Shown piece after piece: positions 1 through 6,222 of a DNA stretch of 64,000 bases; within the stretch, counting starts at the first letter, position 1; every line of letters starts with the position of its first letter. The position numbers and the translations under genes are program-made. This stretch comes from Vampirovibrionaceae bacterium NZW_1234. Lineage in GTDB: Bacteria; Cyanobacteriota; Vampirovibrionia; Vampirovibrionales; JAGQHJ01. The notes beneath the pieces were generated by a model, which did not search any database, was not told the DNA's origin, and saw only the letters and a program-made list of their open reading frames with translations. The stretch spans positions 1-64,000 of the forward strand of contig JBGUGD010000004.1 of the NCBI GenBank assembly GCA_041697335.1, in the 5' to 3' direction.

Positions 1-2
1 AG

Positions 3-389
3 GGTGTCCAGGGTGCGCAAGGTGATTACGGTGCTCAAGGGGATTACGGTGCTCAGGGTGTTCAAGGTGCCCAAGGTGATTACGGTGCTCAAGGTGCTAC
101 TGGAGCTACCGGAGCAGAGGGTGTCCAGGGTGCTCAAGGGGATTACGGTGCCCAGGGTGCTCAGGGTGATATCGGTATAAGCGGTATGAACGGTATGGAC
201 GGCGCTCAAGGTGCTCAAGGTGCTCAGGGTGATGTCGGTATGAGCGGTATGGACGGCGCTCAGGGTGCTCAAGGTGATGTTGGTGCCCAGGGTGATATGG
301 GGCCTCAAGGGCCACAAGGGGATATGGGACCTCAAGGCTACACGTATTATTACTACTCTCCGTATGGTATGACAGGCATCTACGCTTAA
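3..389 (+). CDS. Collagen-like protein, 3' part (5' end lies outside the window)
   Basis: Frame from nt 3 reads 38 uninterrupted Gly-X-Y triplets (GVQ GAQ GDY ... GPQ GYT), then YYYYSPYGMTGIYA-stop. The ORF track shows only 186..389. Confidence 0.92.
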   Translation, partial: GVQGAQGDYGAQGDYGAQGVQGAQGDYGAQGATGATGAEGVQGAQGDYGAQGAQGDIGISGMNGMDGAQGAQGAQGDVGMSGMDGAQGAQGDVGAQGDMGPQGPQGDMGPQGYTYYYYSPYGMTGIYA

Positions 390-639
390 GGCTCAGAAAA
401 GATAACACAGAGGCGAGTGCTCTAAATTTTGAATAGCAAATGTCAGAGTTCTTGAGGAATGAACACAGCTTGCCGGCCTTGACTACTGCAAGCAATGGAT
501 TTCGTGGGTTTACTTCAAGAGAAAAGTAAATAAGTCGAAAATGGGAGGAGAGATAATCCACTCTCCTAAAACGGAGCTTTTCAACCTTAATTTATGCTTC
601 CGTTCTAAGCGTTTATGAGATGTAGGTTCAACATACATC

Positions 640-1239
640 ATGCTTACCCATCACCAGCCTGACATTATTGTTGTCGACAATTTTTATGTTGATCCGGATT
701 TTGTGCGTCATCTGGCCTTAAGCCAAGAGTTTATAGAGAGTGACTATCACAAAGGTAAGCGCACTATCGCAAAATTTTGCTTTCCTGGTGTCAAAGAACG
801 TTTGGAGTATCTGCTTCAAAAGCGGATTACAGTATGGGATGAGCATCGGTTCAACGGGGTTTTTCAATACTGTATTGCCTCCGATCCAATTGTGATTCAC
901 TCCGATTTACAGACGTATGCCGCGGTCGTCTATTTAACCCCCAATGCACCGCCTGAATGTGGAACCACGTTTTATCGAAGCAAAAAGACAGGCTTAATGG
1001 CCTCACCCACAGAAGCCGATGCCAAGAGAGCCAATATGAGCTTGCATGATCTGAATCGGATGCAATATTCCGGCAATCTCTTTGATTTTACAAAATGGGA
1101 AGTTATTGATGTCATTGGAAATGTGTATAATCGACTGGTCATTTGGAATGCCAAGCTAATCCATAGTGCCTCTATGTACTTTGGGAATGACGTAGCAGAT
1201 AGTCGATTATTCCACATGTTCTTTTTTGATGCCGAATAA
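640..1239 (+). CDS. Fe(II)/2-oxoglutarate dioxygenase-like protein (DUF6445-like)
   Basis: IIVVDNFY..P N-terminus, HxD (IHSD), YLTP..P..GT.FY, YNRLVIW, distal His (LIHSA), C-terminal Arg (SRLFHMFFF). Confidence 0.75.
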   Translation: MLTHHQPDIIVVDNFYVDPDFVRHLALSQEFIESDYHKGKRTIAKFCFPGVKERLEYLLQKRITVWDEHRFNGVFQYCIASDPIVIHSDLQTYAAVVYLTPNAPPECGTTFYRSKKTGLMASPTEADAKRANMSLHDLNRMQYSGNLFDFTKWEVIDVIGNVYNRLVIWNAKLIHSASMYFGNDVADSRLFHMFFFDAE

Positions 1240-1367
1240 ATGGATTTAATTAAACCTATAGGGGATATTGAGGAGTTAGGCTTAAGTATTTTAAAAACAG
1301 TCCGAAAGAACCAATACCATCTTAATTTTGGCTGAATCTATCCATACTGCTACCTTAACGGAACTCT

Positions 1368-2150
1368 GTGCGACTGATGCAATACAATTACGCTGTTAAT
1401 TTAGATTATCTGAATTCGTCACTGACCCGAATGATTCTGGCTGTTCGAGATTTCAGCCGGGTTTTGGAAGTGGGGTGCGCGACAGGCTATGTTGGAGAAG
1501 CATTGGCACAAAAAGGCTGTACAGTTTTTGGTATTGAGTATGATCCTCATATGGCAGAACAGGCCCGACAGCGAAATTGCTATAAATCCGTAGTGACATT
1601 GGACTTAAACCAACCGGAACAACTTGATGCGTTTCGAATTGAACCGGTGGATCACATTCTGTGGGGGGATGTCATTGAACACCTGCTTCATCCTCAAATG
1701 TCCGTTCGTGGTGTGCTCCCCATCTTGCAGGAAGACGGGACAATGATTTTTTCTATTCCGAATGTAAGTCATGGGTCTCTAAAGTTGAATTTGCTTTTAA
1801 ATAACTTTCGCTATACCCCTCAAGGCTTACTGGACAATACCCACATCCGGTTTTTTACCATTAAGTCTGTTATTTCATTTATGACAGATTTGGGATTAGA
1901 AATTATCAGTTTAGATAGGATTTTCCACCCAATAAATCTCAGAGAGCAACCGGTGGAAGTCAGTACGTTTCCCGCAGAAGTGTTTGACTTTGTTAGACGA
2001 GATCTGGAGTCCTATTCTTATCAATATGTTGTGACTGCCCGTCGTTCAAAACTCAGTGAAGAGAATTTAGTTTTACAGAACAATACATTTACGTACCCTA
2101 CTAAGCAAGACTATTTGAATTGCCAGCAATATTGTCAGGCTTTTTTATAG
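1368..2150 (+). CDS. Class I SAM-dependent methyltransferase, glycan-associated type
   Basis: VLEVGCATG motif I; DVIEHL, SIPN and GLLDNTHIRFFT motifs typical of polysaccharide-cluster methyltransferases. Confidence 0.85.
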   Translation: MRLMQYNYAVNLDYLNSSLTRMILAVRDFSRVLEVGCATGYVGEALAQKGCTVFGIEYDPHMAEQARQRNCYKSVVTLDLNQPEQLDAFRIEPVDHILWGDVIEHLLHPQMSVRGVLPILQEDGTMIFSIPNVSHGSLKLNLLLNNFRYTPQGLLDNTHIRFFTIKSVISFMTDLGLEIISLDRIFHPINLREQPVEVSTFPAEVFDFVRRDLESYSYQYVVTARRSKLSEENLVLQNNTFTYPTKQDYLNCQQYCQAFL

Positions 2151-2271
2151 TTTTTCTCAAGCTGGAGAAGATTTTAGCGTTAAGGCTATCAAGGAACGAT
2201 AAACACAATAGCCTTGGTCAGTTTCACATCGTTTAGTTAATGGATTTTATTGACAAGTCTCGAAAAGAGAT

Positions 2272-2306
2272 GCGGTTGAGTCCCAAGAGGACTCGGTTGC
2301 TTTTTT
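2272..2306 (+). terminator. Putative intrinsic terminator or attenuator hairpin
   Basis: GCGGTTGAGTCC-caaga-GGACTCGGTTGC (12 bp including G-U pairs) followed by TTTTTT. Confidence 0.55.
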
Positions 2307-2433
2307 GAGTTAAACATCGGACAGCTTTGATAAATATTAAATACGAAATCTGGGGGAGAGGAAGCAAGCGACTCAGTGGTAGTATTAGCTATGAGATCTG
2401 CACTCTGACAGAGTAAGCGCGGAAAACACAACA

Positions 2434-3531
2434 ATGCCAACCGCCAATCTAAAAGTCCTATTTATCGGAAAAGAGTGGGACGTTCCTTATGATACGTTCT
2501 TTTGCAAGAGAATGAACAATCTCTTTGCAACTATTGCAACGTTTAAGCCCGATGTTATTGTTACAAGTACTTTTATTCCCGCCTCGCTAAATGTGGCTAA
2601 TTTTGATATTCGCAAGAAATGGATTCACCTGGACCCCAATATTAAGCCGGATGAATTGATTAGAGCCATTGAGAGTTGCTATTGCGGCTATTTATGGGAA
2701 CATCCCAAGCAGCATTTGCAACCCCTTATCAGCGTTTATACCGGTACCTACAATACGGGTGATTTTTTGCGAGAGACATACCAATCCCTTCGAGAACAGA
2801 CCTATACCAACTGGGAATGGGTTGTTGTGGATGACGAAAGTACCGATGGCACGTGGGAACGCTTGCTGCAAATTGCTACCGAGGATATTCGGGTAAGGCC
2901 GGTACGAATCAGTCATAATGGTAAGATTGGTGCCATAAAAGATATGGCGACACGCTTGGCATACGGGACTTATCTGGTAGAGCTGGATCATGATGATATG
3001 CTGACAGATACGGCGTTGATGGATATTAAAACCGCGTTTGAGACGAGTCCTGATGTTGGCATGGTGTATTCCAATTTTGCTGAGTTTTTTATGGATGGTA
3101 GGCCTCATCGCTATGGCGGGGAGTTTTGGGAAAATCGCTATCGGAAAACCGAATACCACGGTAAAGTGTATGATGAATGTATTACGCCCAATATTTATGA
3201 TCGCTTTGGACCTGACTATACGGAACAATTCGGGTGGTTTTTAACGGTTGGCCCTAATCATGTTCGGTGCTTCCGGGCAAGTGAACTCAAGCGGTTGGGA
3301 GGGTATAATGCAAACTTTCCCGTGGCGGATGATTGGGAGTTAATGGCAAGATTCTTTCTTTATTCGAAAGTTTATCATATCGACAAGCTCCTATATTTAT
3401 ATCGGTTCTTGGATAATGCCGGTAATACGACTTTTGTTCGCAATAAGTCCATTCAGGATCACCTTGCCATTGCGAGAAATTATTATCGGCAGGCCTTTGT
3501 TGAGTTTAACGATAAACCTCGGCCAATATGA
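2434..3531 (+). CDS. Glycosyltransferase family 2 with extra N-terminal domain
   Basis: ISVYTGTYN, WEWVVVDDESTD, ELDHDD, LGGYN, DDWEL. Confidence 0.9.
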   Translation: MPTANLKVLFIGKEWDVPYDTFFCKRMNNLFATIATFKPDVIVTSTFIPASLNVANFDIRKKWIHLDPNIKPDELIRAIESCYCGYLWEHPKQHLQPLISVYTGTYNTGDFLRETYQSLREQTYTNWEWVVVDDESTDGTWERLLQIATEDIRVRPVRISHNGKIGAIKDMATRLAYGTYLVELDHDDMLTDTALMDIKTAFETSPDVGMVYSNFAEFFMDGRPHRYGGEFWENRYRKTEYHGKVYDECITPNIYDRFGPDYTEQFGWFLTVGPNHVRCFRASELKRLGGYNANFPVADDWELMARFFLYSKVYHIDKLLYLYRFLDNAGNTTFVRNKSIQDHLAIARNYYRQAFVEFNDKPRPI

Positions 3532-3532
3532 A

Positions 3533-4594
3533 ATGATCCGAATTAAAATTTTAACGCTGCTTTCTCTTGCCTTCGAGTTACCTGGGGAATACTTTGAAGT
3601 CAGGCACCTCCAGGATAATCAGACAATTTTACCTGTGCTGGCTCAGTATCAACCTGATTTAGTCCTCTGCCAGCAGAGGGACGACATACCCACGAAGCTA
3701 CAGGAGGAGTTGGATGAAAAGCTTTTAGTTTTAACAGAGCCACAGAATGCCCAATCCTGTTTACGGCAGATTGAAGAAAAAATTACAGAAATAGTCTGGC
3801 CTTCAGAACAGGAAAAACCGAAAATGGTCAGTATTATTACTGCTTCTTATTGTTCGGGGGAAATTTTATATGCGGTCTATTCATCTCTAGCGCAACAGAC
3901 ATCATCTCGTTGGGAATGGGTTATTGTGGATGACGATAGTGATGACAAGACCTGGGAGGTATTGCATCAAATTGCCAGTTGGGATAGTCGTGTCAAGATT
4001 TATGCCGTAAATCAGCATCGTGGAAACATTGGTGCGCTAAAGCGGGATGCCTGTCGACTTGCCTGTGGGGAATACCTGATTGAGCTAGACCATGATGACT
4101 TTTTAGCGCCGACAGCGGTTGAAAGAGTCAGGCAGGTCTTTGACGCAGATCCGGATTTAGGGATGATCTATTCGAATTATGCCTATATCGATGACTCTTT
4201 GAGGCCGATTTGCGAGTTGAGACCTGTTTATAAGTACCGCAAAACAACTTTAAATGGACAGGAGTATCTCGAGGTAATGAAGCCGGATATTTCGGCTCTC
4301 CAAACCTCAGAGTGGGTGACCAGTTATTTGAATGTTCCTTTTCATATGAAGGCTTTCCGTGCCAGTGAGCTCCATCGTTTGGGTGGTTATAATGCTCACC
4401 TGAAGGTGTCAGATGATTGGGAAATCGTCTATCGGTTTTACTTATATTCCAGGATTCGGCATATTAATGAATTATTATATTTGTATTGTGTCCGGAGGGC
4501 GAAAGAACAGCGTAGTAATACAACGTCGTCTGTACTAGAGCTTAGTTTTTGGCTAAGAGACCTTGCAATCAAGCATTATCGGCTTTTAGAATAA
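3533..4594 (+). CDS. Glycosyltransferase family 2, paralog of the upstream GT2
   Basis: WEWVIVDDDSDD, ELDHDD, FRASELHRLGGYNA, DDWEI. Start moved to ATG 3533, just after the upstream stop. Confidence 0.88.
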   Translation: MIRIKILTLLSLAFELPGEYFEVRHLQDNQTILPVLAQYQPDLVLCQQRDDIPTKLQEELDEKLLVLTEPQNAQSCLRQIEEKITEIVWPSEQEKPKMVSIITASYCSGEILYAVYSSLAQQTSSRWEWVIVDDDSDDKTWEVLHQIASWDSRVKIYAVNQHRGNIGALKRDACRLACGEYLIELDHDDFLAPTAVERVRQVFDADPDLGMIYSNYAYIDDSLRPICELRPVYKYRKTTLNGQEYLEVMKPDISALQTSEWVTSYLNVPFHMKAFRASELHRLGGYNAHLKVSDDWEIVYRFYLYSRIRHINELLYLYCVRRAKEQRSNTTSSVLELSFWLRDLAIKHYRLLE

Positions 4595-5182
4595 CCTGTT
4601 GCAGCGCTTCTTGATTCCGGGCTTTCTGTCTCAAAAGGGATGGGGAAGTCATATTAGTGTGCTAGTGGGTACCGGTTTTTATAATGTATAAAATTTAAAA
4701 AATAACCATTGAAAAACCTTGTAACAAATTGGCACTAAAATTCTTTAGATTTTTTTTATGCTTATGTAAGGGGTGATGAAGTAACGCAAAACGAAGGGGT
4801 GTTATTTCAAGCTCTGAGAGGGAAATTAGTAAAGCGTAAATGGGGATACGGCTCATGAAGACATTCTAACAAGGCTTTTGACAATTCAATAGTTGGCGCT
4901 CTTGCTTTCGCCTCGGTTATGTCAGGGTTGTGGCATGCACAATTTTAAGTGCAGCAACTGCAATACCCGTGATGAGGATGCGTTACGTTCTGCTGGCTGA
5001 ACCCAATGGGGTCGCCTGGAGGAGTAGCTCTCGTTGCAGTGATGACAATCTGAACAAGCATAATCAGACTTTTAAAATTGAATTTTGATGTGGTGAAGGT
5101 ATCCGAGAATTAAGCAGGGGGAGCTTAAGCAAGATACGGAAGGTCTAGGGGGGAGAGCCGGTTTATCTTGTTCATCTTGACT

Positions 5183-5220
5183 GTCTGCTTTCAGAGGGGG
5201 GAAGCAGACTTTTTATTTTT
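5183..5220 (+). terminator. Intrinsic terminator (U-tract on + strand; may also serve convergent queG)
   Basis: GTCTGCTTT...GAAGCAGAC stem followed by TTTTTATTTTT. Confidence 0.7.
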
Positions 5221-5259: not shown

Positions 5260-6222
5260 TTAGATGGGGTTGTCGTTATTCAGGCGCTGTTTTTTTAATG
5301 CGGCCAAGTTCCGCTGAAGGCCTGATAATTTGGTTCGTTTCAAAGGGCTCTTTCGATACCGGACGCGAAAGGCCTCAGGTGTCAGTGTTAAAATATCGTT
5401 TGGTTTTGGGCGTAAGTTCCATGGCCGGGGTAAAAAGGCAACTTCGCTTGTGGGTTGTTGAAACTTGAGGTTCCAGGGACAGACTTCTTGGCAGATATCA
5501 CAGCCAAACAGCCAGCCATTCAGGTGCTCAGCAATTGTCTCGGGTATCTCATCACCTTTGTATTCAATCGTCCAGTAGGAAATGCATTTTCGCGCATCTA
5601 CGACTTTATCACTGACAATAGCTTCTGTTGGGCAGGCTTCTATACAGCGCCGGCAAGTACCACAAAAGTCGCCTATGGGTTCTGGCTCAGGTTGATTGGG
5701 GAAGGTCACGTTCAATAAGAGCTCCCCTAAAAATACCCAGGAGCCTTTGTCTCGAGTAATTAAATTGCTGTGTTTACCCTGCCACCCAATGCCTGCTTTT
5801 ACGGCAAGCGCTTTCTCAAGAATGGGTGCACTATCAACCAAGGGGCGGCCTTCTATTTCGGGGTTAATTGATTTAAGCCAGCCAAGTAGCTCTTTTAACC
5901 TCTCTTTCAGAATGTTGTGATAATCGTCTCCTAAAGCATAGCGTGCAATTTTGAGGTCGCTTGGTTCTTGAGGTAATTTGCCAGGGTAATAATTCATGGT
6001 GACACACAAGATGGTCTGGGTTTCTGGCATGAGCGACTCAGGCGCACGCCGTTTGTCCAGATGAGTGACCATCCATTGCATGTCTGCGTGATAATCTTGG
6101 TTCAACCACGCTTCTAGCCGTAATCCTTCTTCTTGAATGTCTGGAACTCTTAGTGAGCGAACATGATCAAACCCGAGTGAAAGGGTTTTTTCAACAACGT
6201 CGGCATAATCCGGTAATGTCAT
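5260..6222 (-). CDS. queG: tRNA epoxyqueuosine(34) reductase
   Basis: IARYALGDDYH, VDSAPILEK, GWQGKH, CGTCRRCIEACPT, GCDICQEVCPWN. Confidence 0.95.
   Translation of the reverse strand: MTLPDYADVVEKTLSLGFDHVRSLRVPDIQEEGLRLEAWLNQDYHADMQWMVTHLDKRRAPESLMPETQTILCVTMNYYPGKLPQEPSDLKIARYALGDDYHNILKERLKELLGWLKSINPEIEGRPLVDSAPILEKALAVKAGIGWQGKHSNLITRDKGSWVFLGELLLNVTFPNQPEPEPIGDFCGTCRRCIEACPTEAIVSDKVVDARKCISYWTIEYKGDEIPETIAEHLNGWLFGCDICQEVCPWNLKFQQPTSEVAFLPRPWNLRPKPNDILTLTPEAFRVRYRKSPLKRTKLSGLQRNLAALKKQRLNNDNPI

Follow-up and report, generated by a model that had tools for sequence, protein, structure and literature searches.

Glycosylated collagens of prokaryotes have been characterized mainly from the spores of Firmicutes, where the sugar is carried on threonine. 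In C. difficile, the enzyme SgtA has a GT-A-type fold, is encoded beside the collagen BclA3 and, according to the accessible portion of its description, glycosylates the repeats of that protein (PMC7157674). The BclA and F-BclA collagens of the Bacillus cereus group carry short O-glycans, and a putative glycosyltransferase (GT) gene lies near F-bclA (PMC12357932, excerpts). Threonine makes up 48% of the Yaa residues in the Gly-Xaa-Yaa triplets of Gram-positive collagens (PMC8968730, excerpts). Mimivirus L230 and the animal LH3/PLOD enzymes acting with COLGALT need Gly-X-Lys (PMC9614988, excerpts). In mycoplasmas, glutamine is N-hexosylated without sequence specificity by an enzyme that the accessible text leaves unidentified, and extracellular transglycosylation has been proposed (PMC4657876). 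The locus described here consists of five genes at the start of a 64,000-nucleotide stretch of Vampirovibrionaceae bacterium NZW_1234 (the window: the first 64 kb of contig G000:C7, GenBank JBGUGD010000004.1 of assembly GCA_041697335.1), which encode a collagen-like protein, a predicted DUF6445 oxygenase, a methyltransferase and two paralogous family 2 glycosyltransferases (GT2s), designated GT-A and GT-B.

The favored reading, with a probability of about 0.68, is that these genes form an imported cytoplasmic cassette that would prime, extend and methylate a glycan on a collagen-like fibre of the G-X-Q type. The cassette probably glycosylates the fibre, because the GT family to which GT-A belongs accompanies glutamine-rich collagens in many bacteria and viruses. 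That family was defined by two enzyme motifs alone, E[LV]DHDD and PNHxR, and, judged from the sequences compared, it appears to be an undescribed and widespread GT2 family whose genes track Gln-rich collagens. No description of the E[LV]DHDD/PNHxR family or of its link to G-X-Q repeats was found in the literature searched, which comprised few subscription papers and no supplements.

Loci of GT-A relatives were gathered from genomes, metagenomes and viruses with a 28-sequence alignment, keeping the best 80 loci per scan; collagen was called at a run of at least eight triplets, and genome loci were examined within 10 kb. Among the best 80 genome loci, 49 encode E[LV]DHDD, all of which also show P[ND]HxR, and 31 do not. 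Collagen is present at 37 of the 49 and at none of the 31 other GT2 loci (Fisher p 1e-12, an overstated value because the genomes are kin and not independent; median locus lengths are 20.7 and 14.4 kb, respectively). The collagen lies within 1 kb of the GT, counted on stop-to-stop open reading frames (ORFs), in 28 of the 37 linked loci and is co-oriented with it in 28 of the 37; in the window, GT-A is within 2.1 kb of the collagen. Carriers belong to Actinomycetota, Pseudomonadota, Chloroflexota, Acidobacteriota and Verrucomicrobiota and include one archaeal bin, some of the contigs looking phage-like. The metagenome and viral sets show collagen at 32/70, 25/42 and 16/41 de-duplicated E[LV]DHDD groups, many of them on short contigs. 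Where local collagen is missing (12 E[LV]DHDD genomes), a G-X-Q pattern occurs elsewhere in six, or in five once G080 is set aside, whose match is a gene also found in GT-free relatives; the pattern occurs in 1 of the 31 non-family GT2 genomes, and there it is not a G-X-Q collagen.

A single bacterial family repeats this association. Within Thiotrichaceae, an E[LV]DHDD GT was found in 19 of 101 genomes, and the G-X-Q pattern in 13 of these 19 carriers against 6 of the 82 GT-free genomes, which are again kin, so that p-values are overstated here too. Of 16 fetched loci (L135, L136 and L170, which already belong to the main locus set, are not among them), 15 have collagen directly upstream of the GT, and the contig of the remaining one stops at that point. 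The co-occurrence of ELDHDD-type GT2s with collagen genes, set as a check by an earlier sequence-only reading of this DNA, was thus found both here and in the 37/49 versus 0/31 comparison.

The same genes could serve another purpose. The GTs might make a surface glycan, either free or lipid-linked, or lengthen the glycan of another protein, with the collagen a co-transferred neighbor whose Gln richness was inherited with the module. Many E[LV]DHDD members are multi-GT2 proteins, as this explanation would have it; DUF6445 relatives sit directly after RmlB-like genes in collagen-free phage sugar islands, a weaker plasmid match lies in a rhamnan cluster, and clusters of cyanophage GTs and 2-oxoglutarate (2OG) enzymes have been read as capsular-polysaccharide modifiers by Iyer et al. 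(PMC7824862, in the accessible part). Against it, none of the 31 other GT2 loci has collagen, and the collagen link is seen on each of the three main branches in the phylogeny of the GTs, a quick tree whose label counts were not used as statistics, its cluster representatives having been picked with a preference for collagen-bearing rows. Moreover, bacterial loci often consist of collagen and GT alone, inspection showing no genes for a flippase, a polymerase or sugar synthesis in the vicinity, and the Xaa residue of G-X-Q triplets is widely spread (A, P, S, N, T, V, F and others) while Yaa stays Gln. This alternative as a whole is considered quite unlikely.

The structural model of GT-A bears on this choice. 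GT-A (2434..3531, + strand; PF00535, 82.3 bits, cut-off 23.3) is a soluble GT2 of 365 aa, modeled at a mean predicted local distance difference test score (pLDDT) of 84.9 as an N-terminal alpha/beta domain of ~95 aa followed by a GT-A-type core. Its best fold match is K4CP (2z86; Z 23.7, root-mean-square deviation (rmsd) 3.9, 255 aligned), followed by heparosan synthase (Z 21.8) and SpsA (Z 21.3, rmsd 3.0, 221 aligned), and the peptide GT SunS matches at a lower Z of 13.2. As modeled, then, polysaccharide and teichoic-acid GTs rank at the top and SunS lower, which favors a surface glycan, although such matches are expected for any GT2.

Besides these fold matches, several observations weigh against the cassette reading. 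The evidence is throughout genomic association, read from sequence. In seven of the 49 E[LV]DHDD genomes, a G-X-Q collagen was found neither at the locus nor by pattern elsewhere (G080 discounted), and L210, a close stand-alone relative (62%), has no collagen within 10 kb. The link also runs one way: an E[LV]DHDD GT lies near 4 of 200 viral collagen groups, for which only the first 80 or so loci per scan had flanks, and it occurs in 1 of 110 viral records with unselected collagen, an underpowered test. All four of the groups near a GT have Yaa-Gln of at least 0.68, and a GT is nearby in 4 of 37 viral groups with Yaa-Gln of at least 0.5 versus 0 of 143. The background used for composition is viral, not bacterial. 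Finally, a terminator-like hairpin with a T tract at 2272..2308 (+ strand, hairpin proper 2272-2300, -17.2 kcal/mol), between the methyltransferase and GT-A, may divide transcription of the cassette. The sequence-only reading had raised this hairpin as a caveat, and the structure does exist; however, terminator-like sites are no more common in the region than in shuffled sequence (4 found versus 4.2 expected).

Some linked loci show arrangements of their own. In Acidimicrobiaceae, loci L147, L149, L157, L164 and L174 carry very long collagen-like ORFs (as many as 742 triplets, 2555 aa) 5' of the GT, and DUF6445 faces the GT in convergent orientation, an arrangement shared with Thiotrichaceae. 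In Cocleimonas (L136:11456-13136), a collagen-GT pair is followed immediately by FliN_C and FliP-family genes of type III export; the host genome of the window has two FliP-like genes.

The composition of the linked collagens sets them apart. Median Yaa-Gln is 0.57 in 38 viral groups, 0.53 in 32 genome collagens and 0.56 in 30 metagenome collagens, against 0.11 in 126 background viral collagens drawn by Gly-periodicity pattern alone. Yaa-Gln reaches at least 0.3 in 32/38, 27/32 and 26/30 of the linked sets, respectively, versus 33/126 of the background. Ser plus Thr per triplet is not enriched (0.30-0.38 linked versus 0.40 background). Under a different de-duplication, Gln is below 0.1 in 7/119 linked and 55/130 background collagens, and Ser+Thr is below 0.1 in 15/119 and 12/130. 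Two out-of-sample cases are available. The Peribacillus plasmid NZ_CP133765 carries its GT between exosporium collagens with Yaa-Gln of 0.74 and 0.90; in cyanophage S-CRM01, a GT-methyltransferase fusion resembling the family (EADHDD, PDHVR) is encoded ~50 kb away from a pair of collagens with Yaa-Gln of 0.62 and 0.67. In five genomes with a single family GT, the collagen beside the GT is Gln-rich in 5/5, and other collagen-like loci reach 0.3 in 3/10.

If collagen is the substrate, two kinds of residue are about equally likely to receive the sugar. The Gln amide is favored because Gln is the enriched residue, whereas the hydroxyl of Thr or Ser is favored because the Thiotrichaceae collagens are as Thr-rich as they are Gln-rich; each falls somewhat short of an even chance, and another acceptor (Tyr, a non-collagen domain or a pre-attached sugar) is unlikely. 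Several cases speak against Gln. Fifteen Thiotrichaceae collagens are mixed GAQ/GAT/GST types with median Yaa-Gln of 0.38 and Yaa-Thr of 0.47, one of them having Yaa-Gln of 0.06 and Yaa-Thr of 0.89. Among 119 linked collagens, Gln is missing altogether from the triplets of three; one of the 119 has no Ser or Thr. A 735-kb phage with the GT encodes, in five sampled collagen stretches, mostly Ser/Thr or Pro-Xaa types, with one at Gln 0.45. The boldest form of the Gln proposal is that the E[LV]DHDD/PNHxR family is a dedicated glutamine N-glycosyltransferase of GT-A-type fold, placing sugar on the Yaa-Gln amide of G-X-Q collagens, with tailoring left to DUF6445 and methyltransferases; as a whole it is a tentative and rather doubtful proposition. 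An Asp base suits a hydroxyl acceptor; activation of an amide would be speculative. GT2 enzymes use nucleotide-sugar donors and a DxD-bound metal. AvpGT was dropped as a candidate GT2 precedent for N-glycosylation, the title of that work (PMC11959488) naming an O-glucosyltransferase.

The window collagen itself (3..389, + strand; PF01391 at 70 bits and a G-X-Y regular expression) is a 3' part, cut at its 5' end because the window begins where the contig begins. The visible fragment of 128 aa contains 38 triplets by regular expression, with Yaa residues that include 20 Gln, 4 Tyr, 3 Thr and 2 Ser and no Pro, and it has no Lys and no GPT triplet in the part that is seen. It ends in a short Tyr-rich tail (345-389). 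Eight linked collagens of Thiotrichaceae (L1019-L1026) end in short aromatic tails rich in Trp, Gly and Cys; the aromatic tails of linked collagens are possibly a trimer-nucleation or assembly motif. The upstream sequence that the sequence-only reading had called for was recovered in part. Contigs of runs X1 and X9 each have a loose end ahead of position 62, of 185 and 64 letters. Read in frame, it gives a short stretch without repeats plus more G-X-Q triplets, and it probably represents the beginning of the collagen region. This sequence was not placed, however: a 16-base probe from the loose end has 0 matches in the assembly (genome 94.75% complete), and no matching collagen repeats were found elsewhere in the assembly or at contig ends. 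Among the read contigs aligned to the stretch, none covers it whole in one piece. Other G-X-Y-like runs in the host genome (C9, C14, C20, C23 and C25) are rich in Ser, Thr, Ala and Asn, and none lies beside an E[LV]DHDD GT. In G001, a relative from the same family as the host, L1000 and L1005 hold short G-S-Q/G-N-Q repeats, and no E[LV]DHDD GT was found in that genome (87% complete).

DUF6445 (640..1239, + strand, 199 aa; PF20043, 45.8 bits, cut-off 24) is a family to which Pfam assigns no function, and no paper naming it was found in the literature searched. Across an alignment of 36 sequences, residues H87-x-D89, H175 and R189 never vary, and the model (pLDDT 95) matches best OGFOD1 (Z 14.2, rmsd 3.1, 161 aligned), PHD (Z 13.1) and P. 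putida P4H (Z 12.9). With a metal triad, a 2OG-binding Arg and a double-stranded beta-helix fold, the window protein is predicted to be an Fe(II)/2OG oxygenase. Halogenases and sugar oxygenases lie near these best folds (AviO1 Z 11.7, HygX Z 11.0, the latter being the top Foldseek match), and PLOD-type domains (6ax6 Z 10.1, 8zgc Z 9.8) fall below many other 2OG enzymes. The protein also matches phrog_1644, labeled 'minor coat protein', a likely mis-annotation because the oxygenase fold and metal triad do not fit it. Cyanophage RefSeq records H50, H54 and H59 hold DUF6445-like proteins with the same label, which in S-SSM7 stand beside GT11 and GT25 genes.

DUF6445 appears to be accessory and dispensable to the GT, because it was found in only 9 of 48 E[LV]DHDD genomes (48 of the 49 were searched) and in 9 of the 19 Thiotrichaceae carriers. 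The 39 genomes in which it was not found include cultured isolates, and the search covered DUF6445, not other oxygenase families. When present, it keeps close to the GT: 6 of 7 strong matches in E[LV]DHDD genomes adjoin it, the seventh lying ~18 kb off, as do all nine in Thiotrichaceae, where none of the 82 GT-free genomes has DUF6445. Most of the close viral relatives of DUF6445 come directly after RmlB-like genes in collagen-free phage sugar islands (genes named by sequence reading), and the co-occurrence of DUF6445 with collagen that was to be checked was nearly absent there, with collagen within 8 kb in 1 of 16 viral locus groups.

The sequence-only reading had taken animal and giant-virus collagens as its model, with hydroxylation preceding glycosylation. 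Read literally, this model has prolyl-4 or lysyl hydroxylation first and glycosylation of the hydroxylated residue second; it would draw on the gene adjacency and the PHD-like fold, and the unseen 5' portion of the collagen might be composed differently. This animal-type route fails because the visible collagen lacks Yaa-Pro (0/38) and Lys and because DUF6445 was not found in most carriers. Linked collagens at large have median Yaa-Pro and Yaa-Lys of ~0, and among those with DUF6445 nearby, 8 of the 9 in Thiotrichaceae have 0.00 Pro in their triplets and 20 others have a mean Yaa-Lys of 0.002. The chance of this route is remote.

A new form of hydroxylation is harder to dismiss, though still improbable. 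Here DUF6445 would hydroxylate collagen Gln, Asn or Asp, and the GT would glycosylate the new hydroxyl. The closest structural neighbors of DUF6445 being protein hydroxylases, its adjacency to the GT where both occur, and its absence from GT-free Thiotrichaceae would all suit this order of events. In DUF6445-linked collagens, mean Yaa-Asn is 0.081 versus 0.021, a difference that is uncorrected, drawn from kin that are not independent, and only a lead. Cases free of the GT also exist. The Ralstonia solanacearum PSI07 megaplasmid NC_014310.1 (L1007:4242-9208) encodes a 151-triplet collagen that is 100% G-X-Q, then a WbuX-like PP-loop protein, DUF6445, a 117-aa ORF and a YhhB/FxsB-like cyclophane-forming radical S-adenosylmethionine (SAM) enzyme, with no E[LV]DHDD GT seen at the locus; in cyanophage DSL-LC02, DUF6445 lies among G-X-Q/T fibres. 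Given these two cases, DUF6445 may act on collagen itself, and the Ralstonia locus may be a separate Gln-directed or ribosomally synthesized and post-translationally modified peptide (RiPP)-like modification system. Against this form of hydroxylation, the radical SAM peptide maturase of that locus may have its own substrate, sugar and small-molecule oxygenases come within ~3 Z units of the best DUF6445 match, and most carriers of the GT (39/48 genomes, 10/19 in Thiotrichaceae) were found without DUF6445.

The third enzyme gene (1368..2150, + strand) encodes a class I SAM-dependent methyltransferase of 260 aa, with a GTG start and a possible ATG at 1377 (PF13489, 64 versus a cut-off of 27 bits; PF08241, 47.4 versus 21.2 bits). 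Methylation had been tied to the GTs from the sequence, and this tie holds: 25 of the 49 E[LV]DHDD proteins of bacterial genomes carry a SAM-binding motif after their GT domain, a methyltransferase domain is confirmed by Pfam in 5 of 30 E[LV]DHDD proteins scanned, and 5 of 10 longer relatives of the window methyltransferase found have PF00535. GT-A and GT-B lack a fused SAM-motif domain. The window methyltransferase shows no BLASTP homology to the methyltransferase domain fused to the L148 GT (E 0.27) and no match at E 1e-4 in E[LV]DHDD loci L130-L180. It is inferred that the stand-alone METHYLTRANSFERASE at 1368-2150, a different type, functionally replaces the domain fused to other family GTs.

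Both GTs carry ELDHDD and share 37.8% identity over 339 aa. D185-H186-D187-D188 of GT-A is invariant in the family alignment, and the likewise invariant H276, R278, D299 and D300 are candidate acceptor-recognition residues. GT-B (3533..4594, + strand, 353 aa; PF00535, 74.2 bits, cut-off 23.3) is a divergent paralog that groups with the GT-A clade on a long branch (1.22; quick tree). It retains ELDHDD and the equivalents of G166, K169 and D299-D300, but its PNHxR has become PFHxK. The best-scoring relatives are multi-GT proteins of 800-1700 aa that carry the GT-A module at their N terminus, a position that fits a priming role. In the favored cassette reading, GT-A would place the first sugar, from a host nucleotide sugar, onto the collagen chain in the cytoplasm before export. 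GT-B, which would have arisen by local duplication and whose acceptor-side motif has changed, would add a second sugar or serve a second site, and the methyltransferase would cap the glycan by O-methylation. DUF6445 would be an optional tailoring oxygenase whose target is either the glycan or the side chain of some residue besides Pro and Lys; export of the modified fibre would follow.

Horizontal acquisition of the cassette is well supported by sequence comparison. In 40 relatives of the host, searches with GT-A returned generic GT2s only (at most 71 bits) and no family GT, and searches with DUF6445 returned no match. Viral contigs hold DUF6445 relatives up to 59% identical, and the nearest row to GT-A in the quick tree is the viral locus L295 (70% over 243 columns), whose multi-GT2 protein of 1008 aa is encoded 2.1 kb from a G-X-Q collagen of 1676 aa; full-length GT-A relatives closer than L295 exist (71-73%). 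The donor was probably a large phage. The enzyme genes have 42.3% GC content against a genome mean of 50.5% (standard deviation 3.4), and 1.4% of 902 4-kb windows are equally low, so that the AT-richness noted by eye in the sequence-only reading is real but moderate. A silent relic of a virus-derived island, without function in the host, would account for the absence of the cassette GT and DUF6445 from the relatives, the low GC, the long branch of GT-B and the lack, by eye, of strong Shine-Dalgarno sites at the locus. It is a very slim prospect nonetheless, as the four enzyme frames are intact with family-invariant residues, and the host genome has RmlA-, RmlB- and Ugd-like genes.

All five co-oriented + strand ORFs at the window start are genuine by ORF list and Pfam, each exceeding its Pfam cut-off, as the sequence-only reading had them by type. 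No NCBIfam family scores above its cut-off for the five proteins, no transmembrane-like segment was found in the window enzymes, and the window has no Rfam match. GT-B starts at ATG 3533, immediately 3' of the GT-A stop; the longer listed ORF from 3416 would overlap GT-A. A promoter scan of the region stayed at chance level. Further hairpins lie at 546-567, between collagen and DUF6445, and at 5183-5209, a terminator-like one between GT-B and the convergent queG (5260-6222). The 665-base gap before queG also contains a 35-codon open stretch (4893-4997, + strand) with CxxC-x5-CxxC spacing and a single genome copy. A resemblance to a TnpB-like zinc ribbon was unsupported, Pfam giving weak unrelated matches only.

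The family can be approached through cultured carriers, namely cyanophage S-CRM01, Peribacillus R9-11, Methylovulum miyakonense, and Streptomyces and Gryllotalpicola isolates. Should Gln prove to be the acceptor, the family would add a third way of glycosylating collagen to the hydroxylysine glycans of animals and the threonine O-glycans of Firmicutes, one present in bacteria, phages and giant viruses alike. It would also supply an enzyme for a rarely reported linkage, none being identified in the accessible text of PMC4657876, and a compact tool for glycosylating recombinant collagens. Should Thr be the acceptor, it would still be an undescribed collagen-glycosylation family. With either acceptor, a fold, an active site and a genomic setting can now be assigned to DUF6445.

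Among described systems, SgtA/BclA3 offers the nearest likeness, a GT gene of GT-A-type fold adjoining a collagen and, as predicted here, a soluble nucleotide-sugar enzyme priming the repeats. SgtA has a C-terminal tetratricopeptide repeat (TPR) domain and places O-GlcNAc on Thr in GPT repeats (PMC7157674, accessible portion), and this published description is what sets the E[LV]DHDD family apart from it. GT-A instead has an N-terminal alpha/beta domain and no TPR family (Pfam, E <= 0.01), and the window collagen is of G-X-Q type without GPT, with only 3 Yaa-Thr and 2 Yaa-Ser in 38 triplets. A second GT, a methyltransferase and DUF6445 are present here, unlike at the SgtA/BclA3 locus. The BclA/F-BclA arrangement is echoed on the Peribacillus plasmid, where an E[LV]DHDD GT stands beside exosporium collagens; however, BclA-type collagens are Thr/Ser-rich (PMC8968730, excerpts), whereas the GT-linked Peribacillus collagens have 74-90% Yaa-Gln. 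With L230 and PLOD-COLGALT, the locus shares the association of a 2OG oxygenase and a glycosyltransferase with collagen. It differs in having no Lys in the visible window collagen and a median Yaa-Lys of 0.00 in linked collagens, in the distance of DUF6445 from the L230 hydroxylase domain (Z 10.1, rank 36), and in an oxygenase that the E[LV]DHDD family can dispense with. The absence of Pro from Yaa (0/38, 5' part unseen) likewise separates it from the collagen prolyl 4-hydroxylase system. Finally, mycoplasma Gln hexosylation provides a precedent for sugar on a bacterial Gln amide, though not through a dedicated nucleotide-sugar GT2 such as the cassette is predicted to encode.

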